A program made the position numbers and the translations under genes. This document shows, in pieces, positions 9,669 to 29,567 of a stretch of DNA of 64,000 bases (position 1 is the stretch's first letter; each line of letters opens with the position of its first letter). Where the stretch lies: IMG/VR virus record IMGVR_UViG_3300037808_001516, positions 1 through 64,000 of that record; one strand, written 5' to 3'. The stretch is from a virus. The notes under the pieces are model-generated. The model was not told where the DNA came from and made no database searches. It was given only the letters and a program-made list of their open reading frames with translations.

Positions 9669-9848
9669 ATGATTGTAGAAAAGTTGAAGAACATTTTAGA
9701 GGAATTAGCGCATGCCGAAGAAGATGCAACAAAGAGTGAAGAAGGAAATGCGTCCGCTGGTAGGAGAGTAAGAAAAGCTTCCATGTCAGCCATTAGGGAA
9801 CTGAAGGAACTTAGGAACTTAGTATTGCAGCAGATAAAGGGAGAATAA
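9669..9848 (+). CDS. Histone H1-like (Hc1-family-like) small DNA-binding protein, not in ORF track
   Basis: 59 aa MIVEKLKNILEELAHAEEDATKSEEGNASAGRRVRKASMSAIRELKELR...; SD AAGGAG; GN.SAG.R.RKAS motif. Confidence 0.65.
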   Translation: MIVEKLKNILEELAHAEEDATKSEEGNASAGRRVRKASMSAIRELKELRNLVLQQIKGE

Positions 9849-13294: not shown

Positions 13295-13560
13295 AAAATC
13301 CAGATTTATTAAAAGAAGTAATACCAACAGAGTCAGAGTTAAAAGAGATAGTAGTTAATTATGTTGGAAAAGTCATAAACCCAGAAAGTGATGAAATTAC
13401 CGTGGAAAATATTATTGATGTGTTTGCGGAACAGTTTCCAGAGTTCTTACTCGTGTTGGCAGAAGAGAACTGGGTAAATGGATACACTCAAGCATTAAAA
13501 GATACGGAGTACGTGGATGACAAAAGTAGAATACATAAAACAGAAACAACTGCAGGCTAA
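13291..13560 (+). CDS. Hypothetical protein
   Basis: 89-aa ORF, ATGA-coupled to phoH. Confidence 0.65.
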   Translation: MKNPDLLKEVIPTESELKEIVVNYVGKVINPESDEITVENIIDVFAEQFPEFLLVLAEENWVNGYTQALKDTEYVDDKSRIHKTETTAG

Positions 13561-14526: not shown

Positions 14527-15309
14527 ATGTCAGAAGTAAAAAGAATTAGCTTTTCGGAACTTAAGAACTGGAAAGAATGCCCACACAGACACAAGTTGAT
14601 CTACATAGACAAGCTTCCATATTTCTCCGGAAACGAATACACTGCTTTCGGAACAGCCATTCATGCGGTTTGTGAAGAGATAGTGCCAGACAATTCTAGG
14701 AATGCTATGGAAATCTTTGAATTAAATTTTATCAAAGAACTTACACAACTTAAAGACGAGGGACATCAACTTAACGCTGAGATGGTCAGCGACATGAGAC
14801 AGCAAGCTAAACCAATTTGTGAACAGATAATTCCAGCAGTAAAAGATCATTTCGGTGAGTTTGAAGTTGTGTCGGTTGAAGAGCAATTGCTAGAGCCGAT
14901 GGATGATATCGAGTCTTACGGAAAGAAGTTTAAGGGGTTTATTGACATGGTGATAAAGACACCAGACGGAAAGCATCATATCATAGATTGGAAAACTTGT
15001 TCATGGGGTTGGTCTCGCGACAAGAAGTCAGATCCCATGACTACATATCAGTTAACATATTATAAAAACTACTTTTCAAAAAAGCATAAAATAGACCCTA
15101 AGGATATAGAAACGTATTTTGTACTACTTAAGAGAACAGCGAAGAAAGATAATGTAGAAGTGCTGAGAACTACATCTGGTCCAAAAAAGACATCAAATTC
15201 ATTAAAAGTTTTGCAAAATGCTGTTATAAACATAGAGAAAGGTCTTAAAATTAAGAATCGCCTTAGTTGTAGATATTGTAAATTTCACAAAACGGAACAT
15301 TGTAAATGA
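14527..15309 (+). CDS. PD-(D/E)XK nuclease, Cas4/AddB-like with Fe-S-type Cys staple
   Basis: ISFS...CP, GTAIH, GFID, IIDWKT, QL..Y, C-terminal CRYC....HC. Confidence 0.82.
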   Translation: MSEVKRISFSELKNWKECPHRHKLIYIDKLPYFSGNEYTAFGTAIHAVCEEIVPDNSRNAMEIFELNFIKELTQLKDEGHQLNAEMVSDMRQQAKPICEQIIPAVKDHFGEFEVVSVEEQLLEPMDDIESYGKKFKGFIDMVIKTPDGKHHIIDWKTCSWGWSRDKKSDPMTTYQLTYYKNYFSKKHKIDPKDIETYFVLLKRTAKKDNVEVLRTTSGPKKTSNSLKVLQNAVINIEKGLKIKNRLSCRYCKFHKTEHCK

Positions 15310-16562
15310 CAGAAAAAAAGAGAATTTTAGTTATAGCGGATTCCCCGCTAGTACCTTCTGGTGTGGGTACACAGACAAAATATATGATAGAAGCTATGGT
15401 CAGAACAGGAGAGTTTAAATTCTTTTGTCTCGCCGGCGCCATAAAACACGCAGATTATAGAACAGTCAAGGTTTCTCCTTATGAAGAAGATTGGCAAATA
15501 AAGCCTGTTGACGGCTACGGAAACGAACAGATAGTAAGACAAATAGTGCAAGATTACAAACCAGACGCTATCTGGTTTATGACAGATCCCAGGTTCTATG
15601 TATGGCTTTGGGAGATGTCTTCTGAAATAAGAAAAAACGTCCCTATGATATATTATCACGTTTGGGACAATTATCCCTATCCCAACTATAACAAGAAATA
15701 CTACGACGCAAATGATATGATTTGCACAATCAGCAAAGTTACGGATGACATAGTGAGAACAGTTTCACCGGACGTCCAGTGCGTGAGAATCCCGCACTCT
15801 GTTGATACTAATATCTTTTGTGATAAAGGACCCACAAGCAGATCTGAAATGAGAAAGAAAATGGCATCAGACCATGAAGGTAAGGTGATATTTTTTTGGA
15901 ACAATAGAAACGCCAGAAGAAAACAATCTGGATCTTTGATATTTTGGTTTAAAGACTTTTTGGATAGGGTTGGACATGACAAAGCAATATTGGTGATGCA
16001 CACAGAACCGAAGGATCCCAACGGCCAAGACTTGGAGGCCATATTGGAGAACTTAGGGTTAAAGGACGGACAGGTTCTGTTATCGACACAGAAGATGCCA
16101 CCAGAGGACCTGGCTAAAGTTTATAGTGCCTGTGATTGTACTATTAATATTTCAGATGCAGAAGGTTTTGGTCTGGCTACTTTAGAATCTTTAGCCTCTG
16201 AAACTCCCATAATTGTAAACATGACCGGAGGATTACAGGAGCAAGTGACTGATGGCGAAAACTGGTTTGGCATTGGGTTGGAACCATCCTCTAAAGCAAT
16301 TATCGGATCTCAAGATGTTCCGTACATTTATGAAGATAGGCTTAACGGAGATCAGGTTGTAGACGCCTTAGAAAGGTTTATAGGACTTTCGAAAGAAGAA
16401 AGAGAAGAGATGGGAAAACAAGGAAGAAAACATGTTTTAGAAAATTATGGTTTTTCACAATATTCAGGATTGTGGTATCAGGCGTTCCAAGACGTGTTCA
16501 CTCGCTGCGGATCTTGGGAAAACAGAAAAGGATATAAGCACTGGAGTTTTGAAGAATTATGA
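15306..16562 (+). CDS. Glycosyltransferase, GT4-like
   Basis: SGVG N-terminal motif, RNARRK, EGFGLATLES. Confidence 0.85.
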   Translation: MTEKKRILVIADSPLVPSGVGTQTKYMIEAMVRTGEFKFFCLAGAIKHADYRTVKVSPYEEDWQIKPVDGYGNEQIVRQIVQDYKPDAIWFMTDPRFYVWLWEMSSEIRKNVPMIYYHVWDNYPYPNYNKKYYDANDMICTISKVTDDIVRTVSPDVQCVRIPHSVDTNIFCDKGPTSRSEMRKKMASDHEGKVIFFWNNRNARRKQSGSLIFWFKDFLDRVGHDKAILVMHTEPKDPNGQDLEAILENLGLKDGQVLLSTQKMPPEDLAKVYSACDCTINISDAEGFGLATLESLASETPIIVNMTGGLQEQVTDGENWFGIGLEPSSKAIIGSQDVPYIYEDRLNGDQVVDALERFIGLSKEEREEMGKQGRKHVLENYGFSQYSGLWYQAFQDVFTRCGSWENRKGYKHWSFEEL

Positions 16563-17854
16563 TTAAAGTATTATTAGAGGCACCAATACTAACTCAGTCT
16601 GGATACGGGGAACATTCTCGATTAGTATTCAGATCACTACAGTTAATGGAAAACGTGAGAGTATATACGAACCCACTAAATTGGGGGCAAACGTCCTGGG
16701 CAAGCTCTATAGAACCAGAAACAAAAGATCAGATTGATAGATCACTTGAGAGAATGTCAGAGTATATCCAAATATCAAACAACGCTGGACAAAACCCATC
16801 TTTCGATATGCAGATACATGTCGGCATACCCTCAGAATTTGAAAAGAAGGCCAAGTATTCTGTTATGGTCACAGCTGGTATTGAGACGGATAGGGTGTCT
16901 CCTGAGTGGATTGTCAGAACCCACAGAGGAATTGACAAGATCATAGTCCCATCCGAGCATTCAAAGTTGGGCTTTACAGAAACAAGTTACGAAGCACTCA
17001 ATCAATCCACCAATCAGAAGACGATTTTAGAATGTTCGTGTCCAGTGGATGTAATTCCCTACCCTGCTAAGGAAGTCTCACCGATCACCTTAGATTTCGA
17101 AACAGACACTGATTTTAACTTTGTCTCAATCGCTCTGCTCGGCCCTAGGAAGAATCTCGAAAATATGCTAAGGTGGTTTGTTGAGGAGTTCAAGGACGAA
17201 AATGTCGGACTGGTACTAAAAACAGGTCAGGTTAAAGGATCCCCGGCGGACAGAGACAGGACAACTAGACACATCAGGAATGTATTGGCAAATCATGTAG
17301 ATAGAAAGTGTAAGGTCTACCTTTTACACGGAGACTTGGAAGAAAACGAGATACACTCGTTGTTTACCCGCGATGACATTCACGCATATGTTACTGCGAC
17401 TCATGGAGAGGGATATGGATTACCCGTATTCGAAGCAGCCTGCGCCGGATTGCCAATAGTCGCGACGAACTGGTCCGCACACACAGAATTTTTGACGGCT
17501 CCGTATAAAGAGGGTGGTAAAATTAAAAACAAGAAATTGTTTGCAAAGGTAGACTTTGATTTAAACAAGATCCCAAACCACGTAGTATGGAAGGATATAC
17601 TAATAGAGGGATCCCAATGGGCCTACCCGAAAGAGAAATCATTCAAGGAGCAGATAAGAAAAGTTTACAAGAACCACGGCATGTACAAATCTTGGGCAAA
17701 GTCCCTACAGGAGAGCATTAAAGAAACTCACGAGAAAAATAAGATATTGACAGCGATGTTAAATTCTGTGATGACTACAATTCCAGATGGTGAAAGACAG
17801 ATTCTGTTGTCTCCAGACGACGCCCCACAAGAGGATGTGGTGGTATTCGAGTGA
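16559..17854 (+). CDS. Glycosyltransferase, GT4-like
   Basis: SGYG, RKN, HGEGYGLPVFEA motif. Confidence 0.85.
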   Translation: MIKVLLEAPILTQSGYGEHSRLVFRSLQLMENVRVYTNPLNWGQTSWASSIEPETKDQIDRSLERMSEYIQISNNAGQNPSFDMQIHVGIPSEFEKKAKYSVMVTAGIETDRVSPEWIVRTHRGIDKIIVPSEHSKLGFTETSYEALNQSTNQKTILECSCPVDVIPYPAKEVSPITLDFETDTDFNFVSIALLGPRKNLENMLRWFVEEFKDENVGLVLKTGQVKGSPADRDRTTRHIRNVLANHVDRKCKVYLLHGDLEENEIHSLFTRDDIHAYVTATHGEGYGLPVFEAACAGLPIVATNWSAHTEFLTAPYKEGGKIKNKKLFAKVDFDLNKIPNHVVWKDILIEGSQWAYPKEKSFKEQIRKVYKNHGMYKSWAKSLQESIKETHEKNKILTAMLNSVMTTIPDGERQILLSPDDAPQEDVVVFE

Positions 17855-19452
17855 GCAGAGTACATTTTATAGCAGACTTCTTTTCAGACGAAGTCTCAGG
17901 AGGAGCAGAATTAGTAGATTCAGTTTTGTGCAACTTTCTCACAAGTAGAGGTGTGGATGTAATAAAATTAAGATCTTTCGATACAGACAGTATAAAATTA
18001 TCACTATCTGAAGAGTCGTACTACATAATTTCTAATTTTACGGGCATGAGTGATGAGGTAAAGGACTTATTGAAAAATTCAAGGTACTCTATTTTTGAAC
18101 ATGATCACAAATATTTGACAACAAGGGATCCGTCGTTATTTCCAAATTTTCAAGCGCCAAGCAATGCAATAATAAACAGAGATTTTTACGCTCACGCTAA
18201 TAGGGTGTTTTGCCAATCAAAGAAACACAAGGAAGTAGTGGAGAGTAACCTGCAGTTGAACAACATCGTAAATCTAGGATGTAGTCTATGGTCAGAAGAA
18301 GAGTTAAATTGTTTAGAGTCCGCTCTAGAATCTGAAAAAATAAACAAAGCCGCGATTATGCAGTCTCATAATGAAATAAAAGGACAGGCAGAATCGGTAC
18401 AATATTGTGAAAAAAATAATGTTGATTTTGATCTATTACCCGGTATGCCATACGGACAGTTTGTTAGTGCACTAGCTCAGTATGATAAGATAGTTTTTTT
18501 CCCAAAAGTCTTAGAGAGTTTTAGCAGGCTAGCAGTAGAGGCTAGAGTTTTGAATTGTTCACTGGTGACTAATAACCTACTAGGATGCACTTCAGAACCA
18601 TGGTTCAAGCAAAAGAAGGGCAGAGAGTTATTAAGCTTCTTAAGAACAAAGAAAAGAGAGATATTAGAAAAGATATTTCAAGAAGTATCACCAAGAAATC
18701 AGTTTGACAAAGAGGGGATTACAGTCATATTGAATTCCTATAGAAGGCCTTATAACCTTGAGATGCAGATAAAGGCGATCAGAGAGCAAACAGTTAAGCC
18801 GGCTCAGATCTGGTTGTGGGTAAATGCACATGAAGATAACGAGAACTTTGATTATAGCAAACTTGACGTAGACAGAATTTTTAATAATGATCACAACTGG
18901 AAGTTCTATGGTCGCTTTGCAGCTGCATTGTTGATAGACACGGAGCACGTAGCAATCTTCGATGATGACACCGTCCCCGGAAATCAATGGTTTGATAATT
19001 GTTTGTCGACAATGGCTACACAGCCCGGAATCCTAGGTTCTGCCGGCGTAACTTTGAATGACAAATTCTACGTACAACATGATCGATGTGGGTGGCCATC
19101 ACAAAATTCGGAAACGACAAGAGTGGACCTTGTCGGTCATGCATGGTTTTTTAAAAGAGAATGGTTGCAATACCTCTGGAGGGAAAAACCAACAACATGG
19201 GATAACGGAGAAGATATACAATTTTCATACTTAGCACAGAAATATGGAAATATTCAAACTTTTTGCCCACCTCATCCTCCTAATAACAAAGCCTTACACG
19301 GTTCAATACTTGGCAATGAATTAGGCATCGACAACAAAGCGACATCTACAAACAACGCAGTGTCGCATAATCAGTTCTTTAATGAAAGAGATGTCTGTGT
19401 TCAAACAGCGATTAAAGGTGGTTGGAAAACTGTCAGGGAGATAAAGGTTTGA
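17851..19452 (+). CDS. Two-domain glycosyltransferase (GT-B-like N-half + GT-A-like C-half)
   Basis: GGAE...ESFSRLAVEA; then TVILNSYRRP...IFDDD...GEDI. Confidence 0.7.
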   Translation: MSRVHFIADFFSDEVSGGAELVDSVLCNFLTSRGVDVIKLRSFDTDSIKLSLSEESYYIISNFTGMSDEVKDLLKNSRYSIFEHDHKYLTTRDPSLFPNFQAPSNAIINRDFYAHANRVFCQSKKHKEVVESNLQLNNIVNLGCSLWSEEELNCLESALESEKINKAAIMQSHNEIKGQAESVQYCEKNNVDFDLLPGMPYGQFVSALAQYDKIVFFPKVLESFSRLAVEARVLNCSLVTNNLLGCTSEPWFKQKKGRELLSFLRTKKREILEKIFQEVSPRNQFDKEGITVILNSYRRPYNLEMQIKAIREQTVKPAQIWLWVNAHEDNENFDYSKLDVDRIFNNDHNWKFYGRFAAALLIDTEHVAIFDDDTVPGNQWFDNCLSTMATQPGILGSAGVTLNDKFYVQHDRCGWPSQNSETTRVDLVGHAWFFKREWLQYLWREKPTTWDNGEDIQFSYLAQKYGNIQTFCPPHPPNNKALHGSILGNELGIDNKATSTNNAVSHNQFFNERDVCVQTAIKGGWKTVREIKV

Positions 19453-20444
19453 TTTTAATAAGTTTCGGAACCCGACCAGAGTGGATAAAAGTAAGGCCAC
19501 TTATTCAGAAGTTTGATGGAAAAATTCCATACAAACTGTTGTTTACAGGGCAGCATGAGAGCCTCTTGTCAAAGGTGAATGATCAAGCAGATCTAGTTAA
19601 ATTAGATATAAAACAAGGATCCAATAGGTTAGACTCCATAGTCGAATCTGTGATGAACCTAGATCACATCTTCGAGGGAATAACTTCCGTACTTGTTCAG
19701 GGAGACACCACCTCTGCTTTCTCTATTGCACTCGCTGCTTTCCATAGGAAGATAAAAGTTATTCATCTCGAAGCGGGACTGAGAACGTATGACAAGAGGC
19801 AGCCTTATCCAGAAGAGTTTAATAGGCAATCTATTTCTAGAATTGCGGACATTCACTTGTGCCCAACAAGCACGTCAAAAGTATTTTTAGAGAATGAATC
19901 AACTCAGGGCAAGATTGAAGTTGTAGGGAATACGGTATTAGATAACCTTGTAGATTTAAAGCCTACATATTCAAACAAAGTCGTAGTGACAATGCATCGA
20001 AGAGAGAATCACGATATTATGGACAAATGGTTTGCAGAAATAGACAAACTAGCACAACAAAATCCAGATTTAGAGTTCATAATACCCTTGCACCCAAACC
20101 CAAACGTTCAAAAGTTCAGAGATTTGCTCAAGAGTGTTAAAGTTGTTGATCCAATGGAGTATGAAGAGTTTGTTGCTCTTCTTGCCGAGACAAAATTTGT
20201 AATTACCGACTCCGGAGGATTACAAGAAGAAACTAGCTTTCTATCAAAGAAATGTATTGTCTGCCGGCAGAAAACGGAAAGACTAGAGGGTATTGATAGT
20301 TTTGCCTATCTGTGTTCAGAACCGTCAAAACTTCAAGGTTTGTTTGAAAAAGTAAATCATGATCACATCCCTACTGGAAAGTGTCCATATGGCGACGGAG
20401 AAGCTGCATCTAAAATCTACAGGATTCTAAAAGATGAAGTATAA
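19449..20444 (+). CDS. wecB: UDP-N-acetylglucosamine 2-epimerase (non-hydrolysing)
   Basis: GTRPE, TGQH, QGDT, HLEAGLRT, PEEFNR, HRREN, TDSGGLQEE, PYGDG; TTG start at 19449 likely. Confidence 0.92.
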   Translation: MILISFGTRPEWIKVRPLIQKFDGKIPYKLLFTGQHESLLSKVNDQADLVKLDIKQGSNRLDSIVESVMNLDHIFEGITSVLVQGDTTSAFSIALAAFHRKIKVIHLEAGLRTYDKRQPYPEEFNRQSISRIADIHLCPTSTSKVFLENESTQGKIEVVGNTVLDNLVDLKPTYSNKVVVTMHRRENHDIMDKWFAEIDKLAQQNPDLEFIIPLHPNPNVQKFRDLLKSVKVVDPMEYEEFVALLAETKFVITDSGGLQEETSFLSKKCIVCRQKTERLEGIDSFAYLCSEPSKLQGLFEKVNHDHIPTGKCPYGDGEAASKIYRILKDEV

Positions 20445-21210
20445 AAAAGATTTTTTTAATTTACTGGCAAAACTCCGTTCCGGTGAAAATTTTGCATATA
20501 CTAGGTTTTCCGACGGAGAAATTTGTGTTATGCAAGACCAGGAACTTCGGCTAGCATCCGACCACGTAGTCGTGGGTCCAAAAATTTATGGTTTCGGATA
20601 TTCAGAAGATGACCACAAGCACTATGATCCAAACAAGCATGGTTTTTTGAAAGACGCCCTGATTGATGCCTACAAATTTAAACACAAAGACTATTACGTT
20701 GGGGGCATATGCAACGGCTGCACCTGCGCATCTAAGGAGTTTGCATCGTGGATGCATGATCTCTATGGAGAGGTCGACGATAATTTGACTTCTACAAACC
20801 TCTTGGTTAATTCAAATTACCCACTGTTTGTTCAGAATTTCATACCTATTCTTAAAGGAAAGAAAGTCGTGCTAGTGTGTAGTGAAAATGCAAAGATTAA
20901 TCAAATGGGATTTGATATTATAAAAGATTTTAGAGTGGGAAAGAATTGCATAGTTAATGACCACCATCTGATTGAGGAGATCTCTCAATGGATTTTTGAA
21001 AACGAAATTGAGGACCATGTGTTTTTGTTTTCTGCTAGCAGTCTAAGTGAAGTTCTTATACACAATCTATTCAAGTCCAGCCAAGACAACACATATATAG
21101 ATATCGGAACCACCCTTCACCCATATATGGGCTTGGATATAGCACGTGACTACTTAAAAGCATACCATCACAACCTGCCACACCCAGACTTGAGAAGCTC
21201 CTGTGTGTAG
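20434..21210 (+). CDS. Putative GT-D-fold glycosyltransferase-like protein
   Basis: RFSDGE N-terminal motif and IDIGT C-terminal motif; glyco-cluster context. Confidence 0.5.
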   Translation: MKYKKDFFNLLAKLRSGENFAYTRFSDGEICVMQDQELRLASDHVVVGPKIYGFGYSEDDHKHYDPNKHGFLKDALIDAYKFKHKDYYVGGICNGCTCASKEFASWMHDLYGEVDDNLTSTNLLVNSNYPLFVQNFIPILKGKKVVLVCSENAKINQMGFDIIKDFRVGKNCIVNDHHLIEEISQWIFENEIEDHVFLFSASSLSEVLIHNLFKSSQDNTYIDIGTTLHPYMGLDIARDYLKAYHHNLPHPDLRSSCV

Positions 21211-21601
21211 TGCGAACAAGAGGTTGGTTAAAAACGAACAAAAATATTGGCCATTTATAAGAAAGCTTAGAAACGATAAGAGAGTCAAAGAGGGGTTTGT
21301 CTCTCAGCAACACATATCAGAAGAGGATCATGAAGATTTTATGAAAGATCATGGTGATAAATACTACATTTGTTTAGTAGGAGACGTGCCGGCAGGTTTC
21401 GTCGGGTCCATTATGGGAGACATAAGGGTAGCAACTGATCCCTGCTATCAAGGCAAGGGTGTGGGAAAATTTATGATTTCCGAAATATTGTTAAAATTTC
21501 CTGATTCATATGCTAAAGTTAAGACAGAAAACAAGGCCAGTCTTGCTTTATTTGAGTCTTGTGGTTTTAAGAAAAAATATTTCATTTTAGAGAGAGAGTA
21601 A
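21203..21601 (+). CDS. GNAT N-acetyltransferase (sugar N-acetylase, PseH-like)
   Basis: YQGKGVG acetyl-CoA motif, N.AS..LFE.CGF. Confidence 0.78.
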   Translation: MCSANKRLVKNEQKYWPFIRKLRNDKRVKEGFVSQQHISEEDHEDFMKDHGDKYYICLVGDVPAGFVGSIMGDIRVATDPCYQGKGVGKFMISEILLKFPDSYAKVKTENKASLALFESCGFKKKYFILERE

Positions 21602-22221
21602 TGCTCCATAATCCATACAAAATAGTTAAGATGTTTGAAGAAGAAGTTGCGCATTATACTGGCGCCCCACTAGCAGTTTCAGTGAACAGTTGTACCAACG
21701 CCTTGTTCCTAGCATGCAAATGGAACAAGGTAGCCGGTAAAGAAGTTATACTACCGAAGAGAACTTACTTATCACCGCCACAGTCTGTTTTACAAGCTGG
21801 CGGCGACCTGGTGTTTGAAGACAAAGAATGGGAAGGCATATATCAATTGAAGCCGTTTCCGATTTACGACGCAGCAAAGCGATTGACATCTAAAATGTAC
21901 ATACCTGGTACAATGATGTGTTTATCTTTTCACATAAAGAAACACCTAAAAATAGGGAAGGGCGGCATGATACTGTTGGACGACCCCGAAGCAGCGAAAT
22001 GGCTAAAAGCCAGAAGATACGAAGGTCGCACTGACGGATTAAGATATCACGAAGACCAAATATATGAAGAAGGTTGGAACTTATACATGACACCAGAACA
22101 AGCGGCCAGGGGTCTTACATTAATGCAAAACTACCCAGAACATGTTCCAGATATTCCAGAGGATCCACCATATAGAGATTTGACTGAGTTTGAATTATTT
22201 AAGAACATAAAGGTTTTATAA
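21601..22221 (+). CDS. DegT/DnrJ/EryC1/StrS sugar aminotransferase, short form
   Basis: FEEEVA, NSCTNAL, DAA, SFHIKK (PLP Lys), GGMI. Confidence 0.8.
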   Translation: MLHNPYKIVKMFEEEVAHYTGAPLAVSVNSCTNALFLACKWNKVAGKEVILPKRTYLSPPQSVLQAGGDLVFEDKEWEGIYQLKPFPIYDAAKRLTSKMYIPGTMMCLSFHIKKHLKIGKGGMILLDDPEAAKWLKARRYEGRTDGLRYHEDQIYEEGWNLYMTPEQAARGLTLMQNYPEHVPDIPEDPPYRDLTEFELFKNIKVL

Positions 22222-23759
22222 TGAAGATAGCGCTTTGTTTACATGGATATTACAATAGTTCCGGAGGGCCCGAGTCTGGTAATTTTGGATTTGATTACTT
22301 GAACAAGAACGTAATCTCAGGAAATGACGTCGATGTGTTTGTACACAGTTGGGACCTGCCAGCAGAAGAAAGAATCCTTCAAAGTTACAAGCCGACTTCG
22401 AGTTTATTTGAGGCTCAGTCTGATTTTGAAGAGGAGCTTTCCCGAATCGACTCAGAGTGGTTTGAAGAAGGTTTTGACAGATCTCAAACTATGTATCGAA
22501 ATTCAATATATCAAACATTTAGCTTTTTATATTCTAGAAAGGCTTCTGTGGAGTTGAAAAAGAAATACGAAGAGGAAAATGGGTTCGAGTACGATTGCGT
22601 GATCCTGTGCAGGTTTGACCTAGGTAGCAGAGGCAAGGAACACCCTCAGCTTTTTTACGCGACAGACATGGAGTTTAATTTGAGTGCTGATCTTGATAAA
22701 CTGCATATGAAGTATTGGAACCAATTTAATTGGGGCATTGCCGACCACTGGTTCTATTCAAACAGTAAAACTATGGATCAAGTAGCTGGACTGTATGACA
22801 AGCTAGAGAGTTACTATCACAAAGACAGTGATTATGTAAGAGCAGTAACAGAAGCCTGGCCAGAGAGCAATAGTGATAATGAATTTTCAAATGAATTGTT
22901 TTTAAAAAACAAGTCTGACAATTTGGTAAAGTTTGAAAAGTGGCACTGTGTCGACAATCATAAACTGTATAAGTGGTTTTTTTATGAAACGGGCCTGTCA
23001 AAGCGCATTGGTTTCGGGGACCCAAAGACACAAGAAAATAAAGACTTTTCAATAATCATGTATAGTCACAGTAGTTATTCTGACGCCTGGCCTATGTTTT
23101 TCGGACAAACAGATAAATATTTTAAAGATCACAAGAAATACATTTTCTGCGATGATGATTGTTCAATAGTGCCGGATGATTGGGTTTGTGTAAAATATGA
23201 TGAAAGTCAATCTTACAATAAGAGGGTTGCTTCTTGCTTGGAACAAGTAGATGAAGAGATTGTCATTTTTCATCACGAAGATATGCCGTTGTATTTAAAG
23301 CCTAGATTTGACGAACTGAACAGGCTCAGTTGTATTCTGAGGAGAGAAGGTATAGATTTTGTAAAGCTTCTCCGCGGAGGCATAACAAAAGATGATCCTC
23401 CGTACAAATTTTACACGAACTTGTACAAGATAACAGATGGTGTTCATTATATGGCAGTACAGCCAGCTTTATGGAAGAAGAGCAGCTTGCAAAAGGTGTA
23501 TGAAAAATCAAATGTATCCCACATTAGAGAATTTGAGACCCTGGCATCTTCTGTTTGCTTGAGAGAAGAGATCAGAGGTGTATATAGTTATTCCGGTGAA
23601 CCGAAGGCCGGACTCTATCATTATTCCTCAAGGACTTATCCATATGTAGCAACCGCAATTTCCGCTGGAAAATGGAATACAAAAGAATATAAAAATGAAT
23701 TGATGCAACTATCCAGAGAATACGAAACAGACTTACAAGAAAGAGGTACAAATGATTAA
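22221..23759 (+). CDS. Two-domain putative glycosyltransferase-like protein
   Basis: MKIALCLHG...VDVFVHSW...YDCVILCRFD domain followed by a second domain with HHED; glyco-cluster context. Confidence 0.5.
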   Translation: MKIALCLHGYYNSSGGPESGNFGFDYLNKNVISGNDVDVFVHSWDLPAEERILQSYKPTSSLFEAQSDFEEELSRIDSEWFEEGFDRSQTMYRNSIYQTFSFLYSRKASVELKKKYEEENGFEYDCVILCRFDLGSRGKEHPQLFYATDMEFNLSADLDKLHMKYWNQFNWGIADHWFYSNSKTMDQVAGLYDKLESYYHKDSDYVRAVTEAWPESNSDNEFSNELFLKNKSDNLVKFEKWHCVDNHKLYKWFFYETGLSKRIGFGDPKTQENKDFSIIMYSHSSYSDAWPMFFGQTDKYFKDHKKYIFCDDDCSIVPDDWVCVKYDESQSYNKRVASCLEQVDEEIVIFHHEDMPLYLKPRFDELNRLSCILRREGIDFVKLLRGGITKDDPPYKFYTNLYKITDGVHYMAVQPALWKKSSLQKVYEKSNVSHIREFETLASSVCLREEIRGVYSYSGEPKAGLYHYSSRTYPYVATAISAGKWNTKEYKNELMQLSREYETDLQERGTND

Positions 23760-24276
23760 GCTAGTTATTTTAGATGTCGACGGCGTTTTAACAGACGGCC
23801 GGAAATATTATGATGAATCGGGAATGCCAAAGGCAAAGACATATTGTGATAAAGATTTTACAGCCATAAAAAGACTTAGAGGGGCGGGATTAAGCGTTTG
23901 TTTTCTATCCGGTGACGATTTTGTAAACAAGTCAATGGCAAAGAACAGGAACATTGATTTCTATTCAGCAAGAGGAAAAGATAAGGCGACCTTTGTAAAG
24001 GAATTTGAGTCCAAATATGAAACCACTGCAGCTGATATGGCTTATGTTGGCGATGACCTGTTTGATAGCAGTATATTAGAGAAAGTTGGGTATGCCTTTT
24101 GTCCGTCTGACGCATGCCTTGAAGTCAAAAAGATATGCGGTCTAAAAAACATCCTACCCCAACCGGGCGGCCACAACGTTGTCATGAACCTGGTAGAGTT
24201 GCTTCTAGAAAGGGGTCTAGTTCCGGATGCCACAATGGAGCAAATTGAAGAATTAGATAGAAAAGAAAAGTTTTAA
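23752..24276 (+). CDS. KdsC/YrbI-like HAD phosphatase
   Basis: DVDGVLTDG, SG, K, YVGDDLFD. Confidence 0.85.
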   Translation: MIKLVILDVDGVLTDGRKYYDESGMPKAKTYCDKDFTAIKRLRGAGLSVCFLSGDDFVNKSMAKNRNIDFYSARGKDKATFVKEFESKYETTAADMAYVGDDLFDSSILEKVGYAFCPSDACLEVKKICGLKNILPQPGGHNVVMNLVELLLERGLVPDATMEQIEELDRKEKF

Positions 24277-24980
24277 TGATCAACGTTGCACTATTGGGTA
24301 AGAAATATCAAGACTGTATTTTTTATGTAGAAAACTTATCAGTGGGAGAGACGAACCTTTCTTCGGAACCTTACAAGACTCTCGGAGGTTGTTATAATTT
24401 GCTGAAGGCGCCCATTGACACGGTACAGTTTGACATCCACACAAAAGGGTCCAAAGACGCTTTTATAATAAGTGAATCAAAATCAAGCACACGCACATCC
24501 ATAGTGGTAAACCGATCTGAGTCTTATTATAGTAAATCACTCATAGATACCATTAATCAAAACTATAACTGGGCTCACACATGTTATATCGATGATATCG
24601 AAGATCCACAGCCTCTCCTTGGACTGACAATTGATTTTAGTATAGACTTTTGTACTTTAAAATCTCGTCAAAGATTCCAGGAAATTATAGATAAAGCAAC
24701 GGTGGTTTTTGACTCTAGAGAAAGAAAATCTCTATATGAGAAGATTAACACCAAAACCCCCATAGTATTTCATGACCAAAACGGCATAGAGGTTAACATA
24801 AACGGTGAAGTTTTACTTGATTCACAAGTGGAGCCTATTTTAAATTTAAATGTCAATGGTGCCGGCGACATGTATGCTGCAAATTTTATTAAAAATTATT
24901 ACAAGTATGGTATAATTAAGTCAGCCAACATGGCGATGATATCAACAACACATTTACTCAAAAAAGGACTAAACAAATAA
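24276..24980 (+). CDS. PfkB-family carbohydrate kinase-like protein (divergent)
   Basis: N-terminal GG and C-terminal NVNGAGDMYAA. Confidence 0.6.
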   Translation: MINVALLGKKYQDCIFYVENLSVGETNLSSEPYKTLGGCYNLLKAPIDTVQFDIHTKGSKDAFIISESKSSTRTSIVVNRSESYYSKSLIDTINQNYNWAHTCYIDDIEDPQPLLGLTIDFSIDFCTLKSRQRFQEIIDKATVVFDSRERKSLYEKINTKTPIVFHDQNGIEVNINGEVLLDSQVEPILNLNVNGAGDMYAANFIKNYYKYGIIKSANMAMISTTHLLKKGLNK

Positions 24981-26141
24981 ATGAACAAGAAATTTAACTT
25001 ACTATTACCTATTGCTGGAGCAGCAAAGAGATTTTCCGATGTAGGCTACACAATGCCAAAGCCTTTGATTATGGCAAACAATAGGCATATTATTGACTGG
25101 TCTATGGATTCCGTCAAGCTGGACGATTGCAATATAATTTTTGTTGTTAGAGCCGAGCATGTTTATAATTTTTCTATTGATGAAATTCTAAAAGAAAAGT
25201 TTGGAGAAGATATAACCATTGTCGTCTTAGATCACATGACCCGCGGCTCAGTGGAGACGTGTTTGGAGGCAAGGAAATTTATTGAGAATGATATGCCGCT
25301 AGTAATTTACACACCGGATGTATATTTTCAGAACCAACTGGACCCGGAAACTATAGACCCCAATCTAGATGGGTTCATATTAACTTTTAAGGCAAACAGT
25401 CCAGCCCACAGCTATGTTAAGCTTGACAAGAGAGGTCTTGCCACAAAGACAGCTGAAAAGGAAGTTATAAGCCAAGATGCAGCTGTCGGTGTATATTATT
25501 ATAAGACAGGTGACATGTTTGTTAAGTACGCCGAAAGATTAATTCACAATGACATAACCGTTAAGAACGAATTTTACCTTTGCCCAATGTACAATCTAAT
25601 GATTCAAGACGGCTTAAAAATAAAAACCAAAAGCGCAGAAAAAATGCATGTACTAGGGACTCCGTCGGAGTTAGAATTTTTTACTAACTATGTGGTTCAG
25701 CGATTTGGCGAGAAGCCAGTCGCTTTGTGTTGTGATCACTCTGGATATAAATTAAAAGAAGCGGCAAAAAAAGTCTTAGATGCTAACAGGGTTCCTTACA
25801 TCGACTTTGGAACTCTAATGAACAAGAACTGTGATTATAACGACTACGTATCTCAGGCAATGCAAGCGATCGAATCTAAAGTCTGCGATTTCGCAATGGG
25901 CTTTTGCCGCACTGGCCAGGGCATAAACATTCTTGCTAACACGTCTAAGGATATCAGAGGCGCCTTGGTCTTCGATGAGTATACGGCAGAATATTGTATA
26001 CGACATAATTGCGCAAACTTTTTCACAATTCCAGAGAAATACGTTGATAAAGATGAATTAGATCGAATGGTAAAAATATGGCTCACCTCTAGTTTTGACG
26101 GCGGCCGCCACATGACTCGAATGAAGAAGACGATAGGGTAA
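24981..26141 (+). CDS. Fusion: sugar-phosphate nucleotidyltransferase + RpiB-type sugar-phosphate isomerase
   Basis: PIAGAAKRF...PKPLI...EK...GVYYY...LGTP; then DHSG, DY.DY, CRTGQG, RHNCAN, GGRHMTR. Confidence 0.82.
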   Translation: MNKKFNLLLPIAGAAKRFSDVGYTMPKPLIMANNRHIIDWSMDSVKLDDCNIIFVVRAEHVYNFSIDEILKEKFGEDITIVVLDHMTRGSVETCLEARKFIENDMPLVIYTPDVYFQNQLDPETIDPNLDGFILTFKANSPAHSYVKLDKRGLATKTAEKEVISQDAAVGVYYYKTGDMFVKYAERLIHNDITVKNEFYLCPMYNLMIQDGLKIKTKSAEKMHVLGTPSELEFFTNYVVQRFGEKPVALCCDHSGYKLKEAAKKVLDANRVPYIDFGTLMNKNCDYNDYVSQAMQAIESKVCDFAMGFCRTGQGINILANTSKDIRGALVFDEYTAEYCIRHNCANFFTIPEKYVDKDELDRMVKIWLTSSFDGGRHMTRMKKTIG

Positions 26142-26152
26142 AGAACAAATTG

Positions 26153-26924
26153 ATGACCCACGAGTACAAGTATGAGGAAGTTACCACTCTAATTCAAGGT
26201 CCCTTGAACGAAGTTGGTCTGAGCCATATAGAGACTTATTCAGAATACGGCCCCCGTGGTGGTTAGTTCTTGGAGCGACCCAGACTTCGACAGTCTTTTG
26301 GGGTTCATGAGGCACACCCCCGGTGTCAAGTTTATTCTTACTACATTACCAGACATCAAAAAGACAACACACTGTCTTATGGACAGTACTTTTTACTGGG
26401 CAATATGTTCTATGTACCATGGACTCAAAAATGTAGAAACTGAGTATGTCGTAAAGACCAGAATGGACGAAGCGTTTTCGGGACTAGAACCTTTCATTGA
26501 TCCTTTCTTACTAGACGACAAGAAGATGGTGTGTGGGAACATATTTGTTCAAAAATTCGACAGACAACAGTTTCACATAGGGGACCACGTTTTCGTGGCA
26601 AAAACAGAAGTGCTATTGAGAGCAACTAAACAACTTAAAGATATATATGAAAATAAGATACCATCAGAAACTTGGGCACAGCAAGGCCCTTACTCTGCAG
26701 AACAGGTGCTCGCTTTTGCATTTTTGAAAAATAGTGGTATTCCGGTCCCTCTTGTAATCAATGGCACTGCACCCCCTTCAAACCGCGAAGTGTTCTGCAA
26801 TAATTTTCACGTTGTTGATGTTAATGAGGTAGAAAGTTTCACTCTTCGATGGAACCACAATGAACAAACTTATAAAGATAAATTTGTGAACCCTCACGGA
26901 GTCACAACTATGGAGGACATTTAA
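26153..26924 (+). pseudogene. WavE-like LPS/glycan synthesis protein split by a frameshift in a C5 run (26251-26255)
   Basis: Frame A: MTHEYKYEEVTTLIQGP...YGP then TAG at 26264; deleting one C gives continuous GPVVVSSW...GLKNVETEYVVKTRMDE...GDHVF. Confidence 0.6.
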
Positions 26925-27574
26925 TGAAAAAAGACCTAAAACTTCACAAGAGACTCTTGAAGCTACTGTATGAACACAACGAAGAACACGTTGGCAGTTG
27001 TTTTTCTTGTGTAGATATAATAGATGAAATATTTGAGAAGAAAGCCCCACGAGACATTTTTGTATTATCTAACGGTCACGCCGCATACGCACTTTACAGC
27101 GTCTTAGAAAAACATTATGATCACATAGATGCTGACGAGCTGGTAAAGAAACATGGAGGTCATCCAAACCGGGATGAATTAAATCACATCTACTGTTCTA
27201 CCGGCAGCTTAGGGATGGGAATTATGATGGCAGTCGGCAGAGCCTTGGCGGACAACACAAGAACTGTTCATGTAATGATCAGCGATGGTGAATCAACAGA
27301 GGGTTCAGTCTGGGAGGCTTTAAGATACATAGAGGAAAAGAAGGTCACAAATATTGAAGTTCATGTCAACGCCAACGGATATGCGTGTTATGATGAGATG
27401 GACATAGATTACCTAGAGAGGAGATGTAAAGCGTTTATGCCAAGAATTAATTTCCACAGAACAACATCTGAAACATTTCCTTTTTCATTTTTGCATGGTC
27501 TAGATGCGCACTACATTAAGATAAACGAAAATCAATACAAAGAGGCTAAGGAGGTGTTGGAAAATGAGCGTTAG
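26924..27574 (+). CDS. Transketolase-like protein, N-terminal ThDP-binding subunit
   Basis: HVGSCFS, LSNGHA, GHP, STGSLGMG, SDGE.TEGSVWEA...N. Confidence 0.87.
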   Translation: MKKDLKLHKRLLKLLYEHNEEHVGSCFSCVDIIDEIFEKKAPRDIFVLSNGHAAYALYSVLEKHYDHIDADELVKKHGGHPNRDELNHIYCSTGSLGMGIMMAVGRALADNTRTVHVMISDGESTEGSVWEALRYIEEKKVTNIEVHVNANGYACYDEMDIDYLERRCKAFMPRINFHRTTSETFPFSFLHGLDAHYIKINENQYKEAKEVLENER

Positions 27575-28043
27575 AAAAAAGTTTGTACAACTACTTCATG
27601 AAAAAATGAAGGTAAACAAGGATGTAGTACTAGTTTTAGGTGACTTAGGTTATGGGCATTTCGACAAAATAAGAGAGCAATTTCCAGATAGAGTGTTCAA
27701 CCCCGGGGCAGCCGAGCAGCTTATGTTGGGCATGTCGTGCGGCTTAGCTATGGAAGGCAAGATCCCCGTATGTTATTCTATGACACCGTTCGTGCTTTAC
27801 AGACCCTTTGAGGTAATAAGAACCTACATTGATCACGAAAAAATTCCAGTCATATTGGCTGCCGGCGGCCGCGGCAAGGACTATGGCGCCGCAGGCTTCT
27901 CTCATTGGGCGACTGATGACAAAGAGCATCTGTCTGGATTCAAAAACATTTTAAAAACCTGGCCATCAGAATCTAGCTTAGAGGATGAGTTCGATTCGAT
28001 TATTGAAAGCAGGGTACCGTATTATGTTAATTTGTCAAGGTAA
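27564..28043 (+). CDS. Transketolase-like protein, pyrimidine-binding subunit (no C-terminal domain)
   Basis: DLG, FPDRVFN.G.AEQ.M...GLAMEG, GFSHWATDD. Confidence 0.85.
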   Translation: MSVRKKFVQLLHEKMKVNKDVVLVLGDLGYGHFDKIREQFPDRVFNPGAAEQLMLGMSCGLAMEGKIPVCYSMTPFVLYRPFEVIRTYIDHEKIPVILAAGGRGKDYGAAGFSHWATDDKEHLSGFKNILKTWPSESSLEDEFDSIIESRVPYYVNLSR

Positions 28044-28057
28044 AAGGGGGAGAGAAT

Positions 28058-28183
28058 ATGGTAGTAAGTGATGATAATAAATTCACATTTGTTTGTATAG
28101 CGAAAGCAGCCCCCGCAGAAAAGTTTACCAATAATCACCTCTGGGGCGCCCATGCAAACTACCCATATTATGGGGGTTTTTGA
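28058..28183 (+). pseudogene. 41-codon remnant with sulfotransferase-like N-terminus
   Basis: MVVSDDNKFTFVCIAKAA resembles the Sulfotransfer_2 start (MIISH..KFIF.HIPK.A); has an SD and is TGATG-coupled to the next gene. Confidence 0.35.
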
Positions 28184-28623
28184 TGATACTCATATCACAC
28201 AGAGGCAACACTACCGGAGAAGACCCGCAAGAGAACAAGCCAAGCTTTATCGACCAAGCAATTAAGAAGGGCTTTGATGTAGAGGTCGACGTTTGGTTGA
28301 AAGATAAAGATCTTTTTCTAGGTCATGACAATCCACAATACCCTATTGACTTGCAGTTTTTAAAATCCCGCCCTTTGTGGTGCCACGCTAAAGACTTTAA
28401 GGCGTTAAATTTTATGTTGGACAATAATATAACTTGCTTTTGGCATGAAGAAGATCAGTATACAATAACCAGTAATAATCAAATATGGACTTATCCTTTA
28501 AAAAAAGTTGAAAAAAGAAGTATAATTGTCTGTAAGACGCTAGAAGATTCTAGAGAATATGCAAAAAGACATATTTTTGGAATTTGCAGTGATTATGTAG
28601 GAATCATCGAGGAAAAGAAATGA
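28183..28623 (+). CDS. Short glycerophosphodiester phosphodiesterase (GDPD)-like protein
   Basis: ISHRGN, EN, DVEVDVW, LGHD, WCHAK, GICSD. Confidence 0.72.
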   Translation: MILISHRGNTTGEDPQENKPSFIDQAIKKGFDVEVDVWLKDKDLFLGHDNPQYPIDLQFLKSRPLWCHAKDFKALNFMLDNNITCFWHEEDQYTITSNNQIWTYPLKKVEKRSIIVCKTLEDSREYAKRHIFGICSDYVGIIEEKK

Positions 28624-29567
28624 AGCTGGTAGTTATCACCGGGTGCCTAGGGTTTATAGGTTCACAAATTACAAGAGACTGTTTAGAGAATGGATTCAAA
28701 GTTTACGGAGTAGACAGTCTCACCTATGCTGCAAACACTGGTTTGCTAGAGATATTCCTGCAGAACAAAAACTTTAAATTCTGCAAAGAAGATATAGCAG
28801 ATTTAGAAAATATTCCAGATTGTGATTTTGTAGTAAATACGGCAGCAGAAACTCACGTTGGAAACAGTATAATTGATAGCACTAATTTTATTAAAAGCAA
28901 TATTATTGGTGTGCAGAACATTTTAAACTTAATAAGAAGAAAGCCTAGCAACGTATCAAACCCTCCAAGATTGATACATTTCAGCACTGATGAAGTGTAT
29001 GGAGATTTAACCTCTGGAAGCCATACCGAAACAGACTTATTGAACCCGAGTAATCCCTACTCCGCTTCAAAAGCGTCCGCGGACCTGTTAATTAAATCTT
29101 GGGCTAGAACATATAACATACAATACAACATCCTAAGACCAACAAACAATTATGGGGAATACCAATATCCAGAAAAATTGATACCACTGGCTGTCAAACT
29201 CCTTCAGAGGAACTTGAAAATAAGATTGCATGACCATGGTGAACCAATAAGAACTTGGCTGCACGCAAAGGATACTTCATCGGCAGTAATGACAGTGATG
29301 GAAAAAGGAAAAGCTAACGAAATATATAACATTTCAGGAGGCTTTGAACAGAAAAATATTGAAACAGTTAAAAAAATAATAAATTCTTATGATGATAACT
29401 TAGATTGGAAAGAACACATTGATTTAAACCATGAGCGCCCGGGCCAGGATGTAAGATATTCCCTGGACGACTCTAAATTGAGAGAACTCGGCTGGAAGCC
29501 TAAATGTGTATTTGACGAGCAGATATCAAGCATAGTCGAATTTTATAAAAATAATTTTATATGGTAA
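28620..29567 (+). CDS. rmlB: dTDP-glucose 4,6-dehydratase
   Basis: TGCLGFIG, LTYA, AAETHV, STDEVYG, PSNPYSASKA, NNYG..QYPEKLIP, RPGQD.RY. Confidence 0.9.
   Translation: MKLVVITGCLGFIGSQITRDCLENGFKVYGVDSLTYAANTGLLEIFLQNKNFKFCKEDIADLENIPDCDFVVNTAAETHVGNSIIDSTNFIKSNIIGVQNILNLIRRKPSNVSNPPRLIHFSTDEVYGDLTSGSHTETDLLNPSNPYSASKASADLLIKSWARTYNIQYNILRPTNNYGEYQYPEKLIPLAVKLLQRNLKIRLHDHGEPIRTWLHAKDTSSAVMTVMEKGKANEIYNISGGFEQKNIETVKKIINSYDDNLDWKEHIDLNHERPGQDVRYSLDDSKLRELGWKPKCVFDEQISSIVEFYKNNFIW

Follow-up and report, generated by a model that had tools for sequence, protein, structure and literature searches.

Genes and catalytic sites of the cassette

The first 64 kb of the 143,905-base IMG/VR virus record IMGVR_UViG_3300037808_001516 (positions 1 to 64,000, hereafter called the window; CheckV completeness of the record 79%) carry a block of eight open reading frames (ORFs) that abut or overlap on the + strand from 23752 to 29567, with only two gaps of more than 100 nt. 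An original prediction, made from the sequence alone, had read the part between 23752 and 28623 as a candidate for an undescribed phage pathway to a higher-carbon nucleoside diphosphate (NDP)-sugar, built from non-canonical enzymes. According to our analysis, the block contains a conserved gene cassette that can tentatively be assigned to the activation of a common sugar phosphate. Its ORFs are the following:

23752..24276, +, KdsC/YrbI-like HAD phosphatase, 174 aa; proposed terminal (omega) phosphatase of a sugar bisphosphate
24276..24980, +, shortened PfkB-family sugar kinase, 234 aa; proposed anomeric (C1) kinase
24981..26141, +, fusion protein, 386 aa, of a sugar-phosphate nucleotidyltransferase (residues ~1-240) and a Cys-type RpiB isomerase (~245-386)
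26256..26924, +, WavE-like protein, 222 aa; putative transferase, accessory
26924..27574, +, thiamine diphosphate (ThDP; PP) subunit of a mini-transketolase, 216 aa; accessory
27564..28043, +, Pyr subunit of the mini-transketolase, 159 aa, without C-terminal domain; accessory
28183..28623, +, minimal GDPD-fold phosphodiesterase-like protein, 146 aa from its ATG (the ORF list starts at TTG 28180, giving 147 aa)
28620..29567, +, RmlB-like NDP-hexose 4,6-dehydratase, 315 aa; island neighbour of the cassette

All six gene identities named originally (KdsC-like phosphatase, PfkB kinase, nucleotidyltransferase-RpiB fusion, WavE-like protein, two-subunit transketolase, and GDPD-like protein) were borne out. 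The PfkB-like and GDPD-like proteins score below their Pfam thresholds and were confirmed by their folds and conserved catalytic motifs; the structure predictions proposed as a check were run on these two, and both gave high-confidence models that matched the expected family folds. Scanning the block with promoter and terminator consensus sequences gave no signal beyond that of shuffled controls, and a DNA-level search of GenBank phages with the block returned no match.

The fusion protein joins the first and the last enzyme of the proposed route. Its residues 12–185 match the nucleotidyltransferase family PF00483 (25.5 bits, cut-off 21.2) and residues 247–383 the RpiB family PF02502 (121.4 bits, cut-off 24.7); with both domains above their cut-offs, isomerase and activating enzyme are indeed fused in one protein, as had been claimed. 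The RpiB domain passes the subfamily model TIGR00689 (110.7 vs. 88.3 bits) and fails the equivalog models TIGR01120 (97.5 vs. 138.65 bits) and NF004051 (110 vs. 135 bits). Judged by these scores it is a divergent RpiB, the substrate of which is not fixed by the equivalog models. It aligns without a gap to the solved structures 3he8 (RpiB of C. thermocellum), 1o1x, and 1nn4 and keeps the motifs DH, C-x-T-G, HN, and GGRH..R, with D252, H253, C309, T311, H342, N343, R376, H377, and R380 invariant in eight fusion proteins. Following the RpiB family, we take Cys-x-Thr, Asp-His, and His-Asn to be catalytic and Arg-His-x-x-Arg to bind phosphate; the catalytic motifs are thus intact. The sole deviation within the site, CRTGQG instead of CGTG, is itself invariant and places an extra arginine (Arg310) behind the catalytic cysteine. 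Going by these residues, the active site is of the canonical pentose/hexose-phosphate isomerase type. The nearest solved chain to the nucleotidyltransferase domain is 4evw (E 2.8e-16), named a nucleoside-diphosphate-sugar pyrophosphorylase. The domain remains far below all equivalog models (34 bits vs. 320 for rmlA_long), and its best scores are to sugar-1-phosphate nucleotidyltransferases (rmlA_long and archaeal GlmU).

The two proteins encoded upstream of the fusion are a phosphatase and a kinase. The HAD protein scores 84.7 bits (E 6e-24) against the KdsC subfamily model TIGR01670 (cut-off 106.95) and 82.7 bits against the KDN-9-P phosphatase model (cut-off 180). Its DxD and GDDxxD motifs are well kept: among 62 homologues, conservation reaches 95% or more for D8, D10, K78, G100, D101, D102, and D105. 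The kinase gives 14.1 bits (E 0.03) against PF00294 (cut-off 25.8), and its orthologue in the cyanophage SynMITS9220M01 reaches 25.4 bits (E 1.1e-5) with the PfkB Pfam model. The AlphaFold2 model of the kinase (predicted local distance difference test, pLDDT, 96.4) matched ketohexokinase (5e-13), acarbose kinase, ribokinase, and HldA in Foldseek searches (E 5e-13 to 3e-10, probability 1.0). The protein has a ribokinase-like fold with a GAGD motif, which we take to be the catalytic motif, and N-terminal G..D and GG..N motifs, presumably sugar-binding. The residues G8, D13, G37, N41, G195, G197, and D198 are invariant in an alignment of 44 homologues, so that, like the RpiB domain, the PfkB domain has kept its catalytic motifs.

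The 147-aa GDPD-like protein is not matched by the GDPD family model PF03009 even at E 1. Its structure model (pLDDT 97.5), however, has GDPDs as top Foldseek hits (1v8e at 1.7e-4, 1zcc; probability 1.0, query TM-score 0.59–0.66). The protein carries HR, EN, ExD, and HD motifs, presumably the catalytic and metal-binding motifs of GDPDs, on a much reduced barrel of 146 aa compared with about 220–250. Among 47 homologues, H7, R8, N19, E35, D37, H49, H69, and H89 are invariant, and E18 and D50 are conserved in at least 90%.

Conservation in viruses and relatives in cells

Of the 1252 homologues of the fusion in the protein collection, the best 120 are 378–392 aa long in 118 cases and 282 and 362 aa in the other two. 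Cultured cyanophages are among the carriers: Bellamy and SynMITS9220M01 encode the full-length fusion (50–52% identity) in the same gene order of HAD, PfkB-like, and fusion. Conservation was quantified in 76 further viral loci (L005–L082 less two duplicates), in which ORFs were called and proteins clustered, and all counts are based on 58 distinct fusion sequences. In 54 of 55 loci, a PfkB-like gene precedes the fusion at a distance of no more than two genes, and a HAD gene is found no more than five genes upstream likewise in 54/55. The GDPD-like gene is part of 43 of 45 loci and directly follows the fusion in 15/45. DUF7796-like genes were observed in 35/45 and WavE-like genes in 22/45 loci, and the N and Pyr subunits of the transketolase in 12/45 each. 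Wherever a transketolase is present it lies one or two genes downstream of the fusion (16/16 rows), and it was never seen apart from it. The RpiB domain, too, occurs exclusively in fused form within the viral loci examined. Exceptions from the common gene set are few: L026 lacks the HAD gene, L072 and L080 the GDPD-like gene, and L080 in addition the PfkB-like gene. In L080, an APH-like kinase occupies the place of the PfkB kinase; this non-orthologous displacement supports the need for a kinase at this position.

The genes of the cassette co-occur far above chance, and the synteny comparison across the 58 fusion sequences corroborated that they travel as a conserved unit in other genomes. The fixed core is composed of HAD phosphatase, PfkB kinase, nucleotidyltransferase-RpiB fusion, and GDPD-like protein, and the transketolase is an add-on in the closer relatives of the window. 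The original prediction had listed the GDPD-like protein in the block without recognizing it as part of the core; the protein is present in 43/45 viral loci and is paired with the nucleotidyltransferase family in cells.

Several viral loci contain variants of the unit. Two of them hint at a methylated sugar in some lineages: the KdsC-like HAD protein of L074 carries a fused methyltransferase, and in L047 and L077 a gene for a TylF-type O-methyltransferase separates the PfkB-like gene from the fusion. In L058, L059, and L064–L066, a second activation module adjoins the first and consists of an APH-like kinase, a nucleotidyltransferase-HAD fusion (342 aa), and a GDPD-like gene. Other nucleotidyltransferase architectures found in the same islands are HAD_2 fused to a nucleotidyltransferase, nucleotidyltransferase-HAD beside an APH-like kinase, and two nucleotidyltransferases in tandem fusion.

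Peptide patterns specific for the fusion gave 119 matches in 185,579 bacterial and archaeal species genomes, none of which was confirmed as a relative. A second scan, with an alignment of the nucleotidyltransferase domain only, yielded at least 593 cellular relatives. The best 80 of them, with 35–45% identity, belong to Pelagibacteraceae (SAR11), SAR86, Prochlorococcus, Legionella, Lachnospiraceae, Bacteroidota, candidate phyla radiation (CPR) bacteria, and archaea; locus counts refer to these 80, in 75 of which the nucleotidyltransferase ORF was called. In 47/75 loci the nucleotidyltransferase is fused to a beta-phosphoglucomutase-like HAD_2 domain, and a separate HAD_2 gene is no more than two genes away in another 14/75. 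A GDPD-like gene lies within three genes of the nucleotidyltransferase in 47/75 and directly beside it in 33/75. Neither RpiB nor PfkB-like proteins were hit in the 80 cellular loci, and the single KdsC-like HAD hit is part of an FkbH protein. Full-length WavE-like proteins adjoin the cellular nucleotidyltransferase/GDPD pair, and DUF7796-like neighbours occur as well.

The small cellular orthologues ranked highest by blastp are 45–52% identical to the GDPD-like protein of the window. A virus-only GDPD-like family, as suggested by the ESM Atlas, was considered and is contradicted by these cellular orthologues from the genome scan. PF03009 does match the proteins at the equivalent position in a Woesearchaeota locus (8e-21) and in one from CPR (2.7e-7). 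A shallow search furthermore found 16 longer GDPD-like homologues, none of them with a GDPD-KdsC fusion. Some are fused to the nucleotidyltransferase, in the domain orders GDPD-nucleotidyltransferase-cupin (P0122) and HAD_2-nucleotidyltransferase-GDPD (P0131), and others have a DUF7796-like domain behind the GDPD (P0130, P0134) or a methyltransferase in front of it (P0123, P0127, P0132). In a quick IQ-TREE run, the nucleotidyltransferase domains of the RpiB fusions formed virus-only groups. These adjoin a clade (support 92) of HAD_2-nucleotidyltransferase proteins in which viral and cellular sequences interleave. According to these sequence comparisons, the pairing of nucleotidyltransferase and GDPD-like protein is old and extends to cells (SAR11, SAR86, Prochlorococcus, archaea), sometimes with both joined in one protein.

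Among the Pelagibacteraceae loci (L090–L103, L107), several have the GDPD-like gene and the HAD_2-nucleotidyltransferase fusion as a two-gene unit next to housekeeping genes. In L090, gyrB and lepA flank the pair together with a methyltransferase gene, and some of the Pelagibacteraceae pairs have a WavE/c8-like or DUF7796-like gene alongside. The Woesearchaeota locus (L099, 1530–5478) encodes a xylulokinase-like FGGY kinase, two tandem nucleotidyltransferases belonging to this family, and a full-length, Pfam-positive GDPD in a row.

Accessory genes, glycan island, and virus

Both transketolase subunits pass their Pfam models, the PP subunit with PF00456 (5.9e-10, 39.1 bits, cut-off 22) and the Pyr subunit with PF02779 (2.3e-12, 47.4 bits, cut-off 27). 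Their closest solved relative is the split transketolase 6yak/6yaj (1.1e-14 and 2.9e-14, respectively), and the nearest relatives overall are true split transketolases and DXS. Conserved residues comprise H52, H77, H80, D121, G122, E123, N149, and N151 in the PP subunit and E51, H114, and D118 in the Pyr subunit; we take D121, G122, E123 ... N149, N151 to be the ThDP/Mg motif and E51 to be the catalytic glutamate. With 216 and 159 aa, the subunits are much smaller than those of 6yak/6yaj (about 309 and 341 aa) or one-chain enzymes (about 620–680 aa). The Pyr subunit aligns to residues 37–171 only of the 341-aa 6yaj, and Pfam reported no C-terminal domain family.

The WavE-like protein remains below the PF07507 cut-off (19.2 bits, E 8e-4, cut-off 27), and its family is linked by profile comparison to the sister cluster c53, which scores WavE at 7.9e-11. 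A literature search on WavE gave no functional information. Immediately upstream of the cassette lies the following gene:

22221..23759, +, 512-aa protein of two DUF7796-like halves, putative transferases; no Pfam match, profile links to DUF7796-type clusters

In most relatives, the two halves are encoded by adjacent but distinct genes (about 270 and 245 aa), and a similar fused form (528 aa) was seen in L009 only. At the other end, the RmlB-like dehydratase scores 320 bits (E 1e-95) against TIGR01181, under the cut-off of 365, and in other lineages a Gmd-like enzyme occupies its position. A 4,6-dehydratase gene immediately follows the GDPD-like gene in 25 loci, with 14 Gmd-like and 11 RmlB-like cases. 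The Gmd-like enzyme was also considered as a heptose dehydratase and rejected, because the solved enzyme of that kind, 7us5, is a far more distant match (E 7e-23) than true GDP-mannose dehydratases are (E 4e-83). It may belong to a separate pathway at the edge of the island.

The block forms the variable end of a glycan island that spans 15306–29567:

15306..29567, two GT4 proteins, a WecB-type 2-epimerase, a GT-D-like protein, a GNAT protein, a short DegT-like protein, DUF7796-like proteins, the block, and the RmlB-like dehydratase

The cassette is surrounded by genes for glycosyltransferases, sulfotransferase-like proteins, C- and O-methyltransferases, aminotransferases, and dehydratases. 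Such 'LPS gene' islands (LPS, lipopolysaccharide) of pelagimyophages and cyanomyophages are noted in general terms in an earlier report (PMC7029224). The DegT/PseC-like aminotransferase of the window (21601–22221) has just 206 aa, and the matched family profiles comprise 359–440 positions; since the short form (197–222 aa) is kept in relatives, it represents a conserved variant and not a fresh truncation.

The virus is a T4-like marine myovirus, with a gp25 gene (41224–41748) and PhoH inside the window and a T4-type portal, gp23, sheath, and terminase elsewhere in the same record. According to a genome-wide look it also carries DNA polymerase III alpha, GroEL, and ThyX and is thus not a classical cyanomyovirus; no photosystem genes were seen in the record. 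The closest relatives of its baseplate protein are found in Microcystis phage Mel-JY01 and Flavobacterium phage immuto (28–30% identity). DNA glycosylation of the RB69 type is unlikely, because ThyX but no ThyA-like gene was found in the (incomplete) record. Two giant ORFs without Pfam match, 33182–41161 (2659 aa) and 44662–55020 (3452 aa), are located on either side of the gp25 gene and presumably encode baseplate or fibre proteins. The genome contains two ClpP-like protease genes, one in the window (9848–10486) and one further downstream in the record (G000, 129225–129914), and additionally encodes a class II ribonucleotide reductase and UvdE. A PhoH-like ATPase (window 11978–13294) has a PIN domain at its N-terminus, and a 222-aa ORF (13517–14185) shows a sub-threshold Pfam match to the anthrax lethal factor N/C-terminal domain (E 5e-4, 20.2 bits, cut-off 27.4).

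Proposed pathway, alternatives, and known systems

We favour, with a probability of roughly 0.55, the reading that the cassette activates a common sugar phosphate to a nucleotide sugar used in glycan synthesis, by the successive action of an isomerase, a C1 kinase, a phosphatase, and a nucleotidyltransferase. The substrates, the order of the steps, the product, and the target glycan in this scheme are predictions. In the first step, the RpiB domain would convert a ketose phosphate from central metabolism to the corresponding aldose omega-phosphate. As the RpiB site is canonical, the most economical prediction is the conversion of ribulose-5-phosphate to ribose-5-phosphate. The PfkB kinase would then phosphorylate C1 (yielding ribose-1,5-bisphosphate), and the HAD phosphatase would remove the terminal phosphate (yielding ribose-1-phosphate), although the order of these two steps could be reversed. 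Finally, the nucleotidyltransferase domain would form the NDP-aldose, which the WavE-like and DUF7796-like neighbours might use as glycosyl donor. Where present, the mini-transketolase could supply pentose or heptulose phosphates to the first step. Because a 5-phospho-pentose as starting compound locks the furanose ring, an NDP-pentofuranose, for example NDP-D-ribofuranose, is predicted as product. Within this scheme, we regard a pentose product as somewhat more likely than a hexose or heptose. Of the original prediction we retain, as the best fit, the step logic in which isomerase and C1 kinase are followed by terminal phosphatase and NDP transfer, and which has an experimentally backed phage precedent for a pentose (see below); the carbon-carbon extension that was to precede these steps is not part of the core, with transketolase in 12/45 loci.

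The four-step scheme fails to predict the GDPD-like protein. Since this protein is paired or fused with the nucleotidyltransferase whatever route supplies the sugar phosphate, we infer that it operates together with that enzyme, either on the substrate, on the product, or during transfer. By analogy, it may open the ring of a sugar 1,2-cyclic phosphate that a labile donor has released; PI-PLC enzymes, which are related to GDPD, perform this chemistry. Alternatively, it might handle a phosphodiester made on transfer, as the DUF7796-like fusions could hint.

Several further observations weigh against the proposed activation route, or at least against its ribose version. Ribose-5-phosphate is abundant in cells, so the reason for a fused RpiB is not obvious, and the invariant arginine behind the catalytic cysteine hints at a substrate with an additional anionic group. 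An NDP-hexose 4,6-dehydratase behind the GDPD-like gene fits a hexose or heptose pyranose better than a furanose, and the fusions of DUF7796-like and methyltransferase domains to the GDPD-like protein suggest chemistry beyond activation. To our knowledge, NDP-ribofuranose is no known glycosyl donor, and in the search listing of the literature on ribofuranose in glycans it is phosphoribosyl pyrophosphate (PRPP) that recurs.

The higher-carbon NDP-sugar of the original prediction is unlikely. In the ADP- and GDP-glycero-manno-heptose pathways, activation is performed by GmhA, HldE or HldA/HddA, GmhB, and HldC/HddC, and the anomeric kinase HldE/HldA belongs to the PfkB family. Applied to the cassette, transketolase would produce sedoheptulose-7-phosphate or an octulose phosphate, RpiB would stand in for GmhA, PfkB for HldA/HldE, the KdsC-like protein for GmhB, and the nucleotidyltransferase for HldC/HddC. 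This assignment is attractive insofar as the four activities match the heptose pathway one-for-one, the kinase model has HldA as one of its fold matches, and KdsC-family phosphatases, by their family names, act on the terminal phosphate of 8–9-carbon sugars. The constant position of the transketolase just behind the fusion and the 4,6-dehydratases that often trail the cassette would also be in line with it. However, 33 of 45 loci lack a transketolase, and the RpiB site, including the phosphate-binding R/H/R, aligns gaplessly to a pentose-phosphate isomerase. The Gmd-like neighbour resembles true Gmd and not 7us5, and SynMITS9220M01 has a separate gene labelled D,D-heptose 7-phosphate kinase (a GenBank annotation only), which would render a second heptose route redundant. 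A higher-carbon sugar is thus not required by the cassette.

Quite unlikely, in our view, is a route in which the nucleotidyltransferase activates a pentulose, pentose, or polyol phosphate at its terminal, non-anomeric phosphate group for phosphodiester-linked transfer, and the GDPD-fold protein makes, trims, or edits the diester. Such a route would resemble those via CDP-xylulose/CDP-arabinitol and CDP-6-fructose/CDP-glucitol. It accounts for the GDPD-like protein better than the four-step scheme: this protein is the most faithful partner of the nucleotidyltransferase in cells and viruses and is also fused to it, GDPD-DUF7796 fusions exist, and the Woesearchaeota locus combines a xylulokinase-like FGGY kinase with two nucleotidyltransferases and a bona fide GDPD (PF03009, 8e-21). 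Moreover, pentulose-5-phosphates are products of RpiB and transketolase. On the other hand, the nucleotidyltransferase scores best against sugar-1-phosphate nucleotidyltransferases, and its nearest solved relative is named a nucleoside-diphosphate-sugar pyrophosphorylase; the universally conserved kinase and phosphatase would be left without a role, and no conserved reductase was found in the cassette among the clustered viral loci.

That RpiB and transketolase are ordinary auxiliary metabolic genes, boosting the pentose-phosphate pathway of the host for nucleotide synthesis, is very improbable. Their catalytic motifs look canonical, and this role was proposed for RpiB (K01808), found enriched in viral metagenomes on cyanophage scaffolds, in an earlier study (PMC4022391). 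In the viral loci examined here, however, RpiB is solely found fused to the nucleotidyltransferase, has a dedicated kinase and phosphatase beside it in 54/55 loci, and sits within glycan islands, and the transketolase never occurs away from the fusion. Viral rpiB, seen earlier as a booster of pentose-phosphate and nucleotide metabolism (PMC4022391), is always the C-terminal half of a nucleotidyltransferase in an activation cassette in our data set, which would change the reading of this long-noted auxiliary metabolic gene. Hardly credible, finally, is the weak branched-sugar alternative of the original prediction, in which the transketolase pair adds a two-carbon branch to an RmlB 4-keto-6-deoxy sugar in YerE-type chemistry: the pair, the RmlB-like dehydratase, and DegT-like and GNAT proteins do share one island in the window and close relatives, but the transketolase adjoins the fusion and not RmlB (16/16 rows), occurs in loci without an RmlB orthologue of at least 60% identity (none in L008; matches of only 26–44% in L015, L017, and L079), has true split transketolases and DXS as nearest relatives, and conserves the sugar-phosphate-type His/Asp.

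If the cassette does activate a sugar phosphate in four steps, abundant ocean phages would make a sugar nucleotide that is possibly new, and the two cultured carriers Bellamy and SynMITS9220M01 make this question directly testable. Independent of the product, the analysis exposes a conserved, sometimes fused pair of nucleotidyltransferase and GDPD-fold protein that is encoded next to housekeeping genes in several Pelagibacteraceae loci. As a more far-reaching and rather doubtful proposal, nucleotidyltransferase and mini-GDPD might constitute an undescribed sugar-donor system of cells and marine phages that makes a labile furanosyl nucleotide (e.g., NDP-D-ribofuranose), with the GDPD in a non-hydrolytic or repair function and the phages rebuilding the supply from RpiB, PfkB, and KdsC-like enzymes. 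In this case, NDP-D-ribofuranose would be a PRPP-independent ribofuranosyl donor, and the GDPD-fold enzyme would re-open a sugar 1,2-cyclic phosphate or transfer or edit a sugar-phosphate diester. The four-step logic as such is already known; the enzyme set, the nucleotidyltransferase-RpiB fusion, and the nucleotidyltransferase/GDPD-like pair, for which literature searches found no description, are new as far as these searches reach.

Parts of the proposed activation route recur in several known systems. In the catabolic tagatose-6-phosphate pathway, LacAB (RpiB family) and LacC (PfkB family) act on a sugar phosphate, the kinase at C1 of a ketose. The cassette likewise employs an RpiB-family isomerase and a PfkB-family kinase in succession, but adds a phosphatase and a nucleotidyltransferase in a biosynthetic context. 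The type II phosphomannose isomerase/GDP-mannose pyrophosphorylases (AlgA/ManC type) combine isomerase and nucleotidyltransferase in one polypeptide and depend on a separate mutase. As in the viral fusion, the first step (a ketose-aldose isomerase) and the last (a PF00483 nucleotidyltransferase) are thereby united, and the 1-phosphate comes from a separate enzyme; in the cassette, however, the isomerase has the RpiB fold and is not a cupin, and the mutase is replaced by kinase and phosphatase. Small cupins fused to or adjoining the nucleotidyltransferase were detected in relatives (P0122, cluster c44). With the heptose pathways, the cassette shares a kinase of the PfkB superfamily and the four-step order, in which isomerase and anomeric kinase precede terminal phosphatase and nucleotidyl transfer. 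Apart from this superfamily no protein is orthologous: the cassette lacks a SIS isomerase, a GmhB-type HAD, and a cytidylyltransferase-like HldC domain. Pfam and NCBIfam models for SIS, GmhB, and HldE found no match in the block, and HddC reached only 18.7 bits (E 0.0011, cut-off 300). Judging from these protein families, the cassette would work like a heptose system without being a member, and nothing indicates a heptulose substrate. The cellular HAD_2-nucleotidyltransferase and GDPD-like pair has the same nucleotidyltransferase family (35–45% identity), the same GDPD-fold protein (45–52%), and WavE- and DUF7796-like neighbours; here, a beta-phosphoglucomutase-like HAD_2 takes the place of RpiB, PfkB, and the KdsC-like HAD.

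The closest precedent is the UDP-D-arabinofuranose pathway of phage HY126, homologues of which are reported for RB69 and DLP3 (PMC13326640). According to that report, AfhE is an arabinose-5-phosphate C1 kinase and UDP-arabinose pyrophosphorylase, AfhF is a Mg-dependent phosphatase that converts Araf-1,5-P2 to Araf-1-P, and an arabinose-5-phosphate isomerase drawing on ribulose-5-phosphate acts upstream of both (PMC13326640). Compared on this basis, both systems are phage-encoded and consist of an isomerase, a C1 kinase for a 5-phosphate sugar, a HAD 5-phosphatase, and a nucleotidyltransferase; the HY126 pathway starts from ribulose-5-phosphate, as is proposed for the cassette, and in both one of the other activities is fused to the nucleotidyltransferase, namely the kinase in HY126 and the isomerase in the cassette. 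The enzymes themselves differ. The isomerase of the cassette is of the RpiB and not the SIS/KdsD type, from which a ribo rather than an arabino product is predicted; its kinase is of the PfkB type and that of HY126 APH-like, as is the kinase of the exceptional locus L080; and its phosphatase is KdsC-like in contrast to the GmhB-like enzyme of HY126. The cassette furthermore adds the GDPD-fold protein, and its context is glycan islands and not DNA hypermodification, consistent with the lack of a ThyA-like gene among those found in the record. The cassette would thus be a further case in which phages have rebuilt four-step sugar activation from non-orthologous parts.

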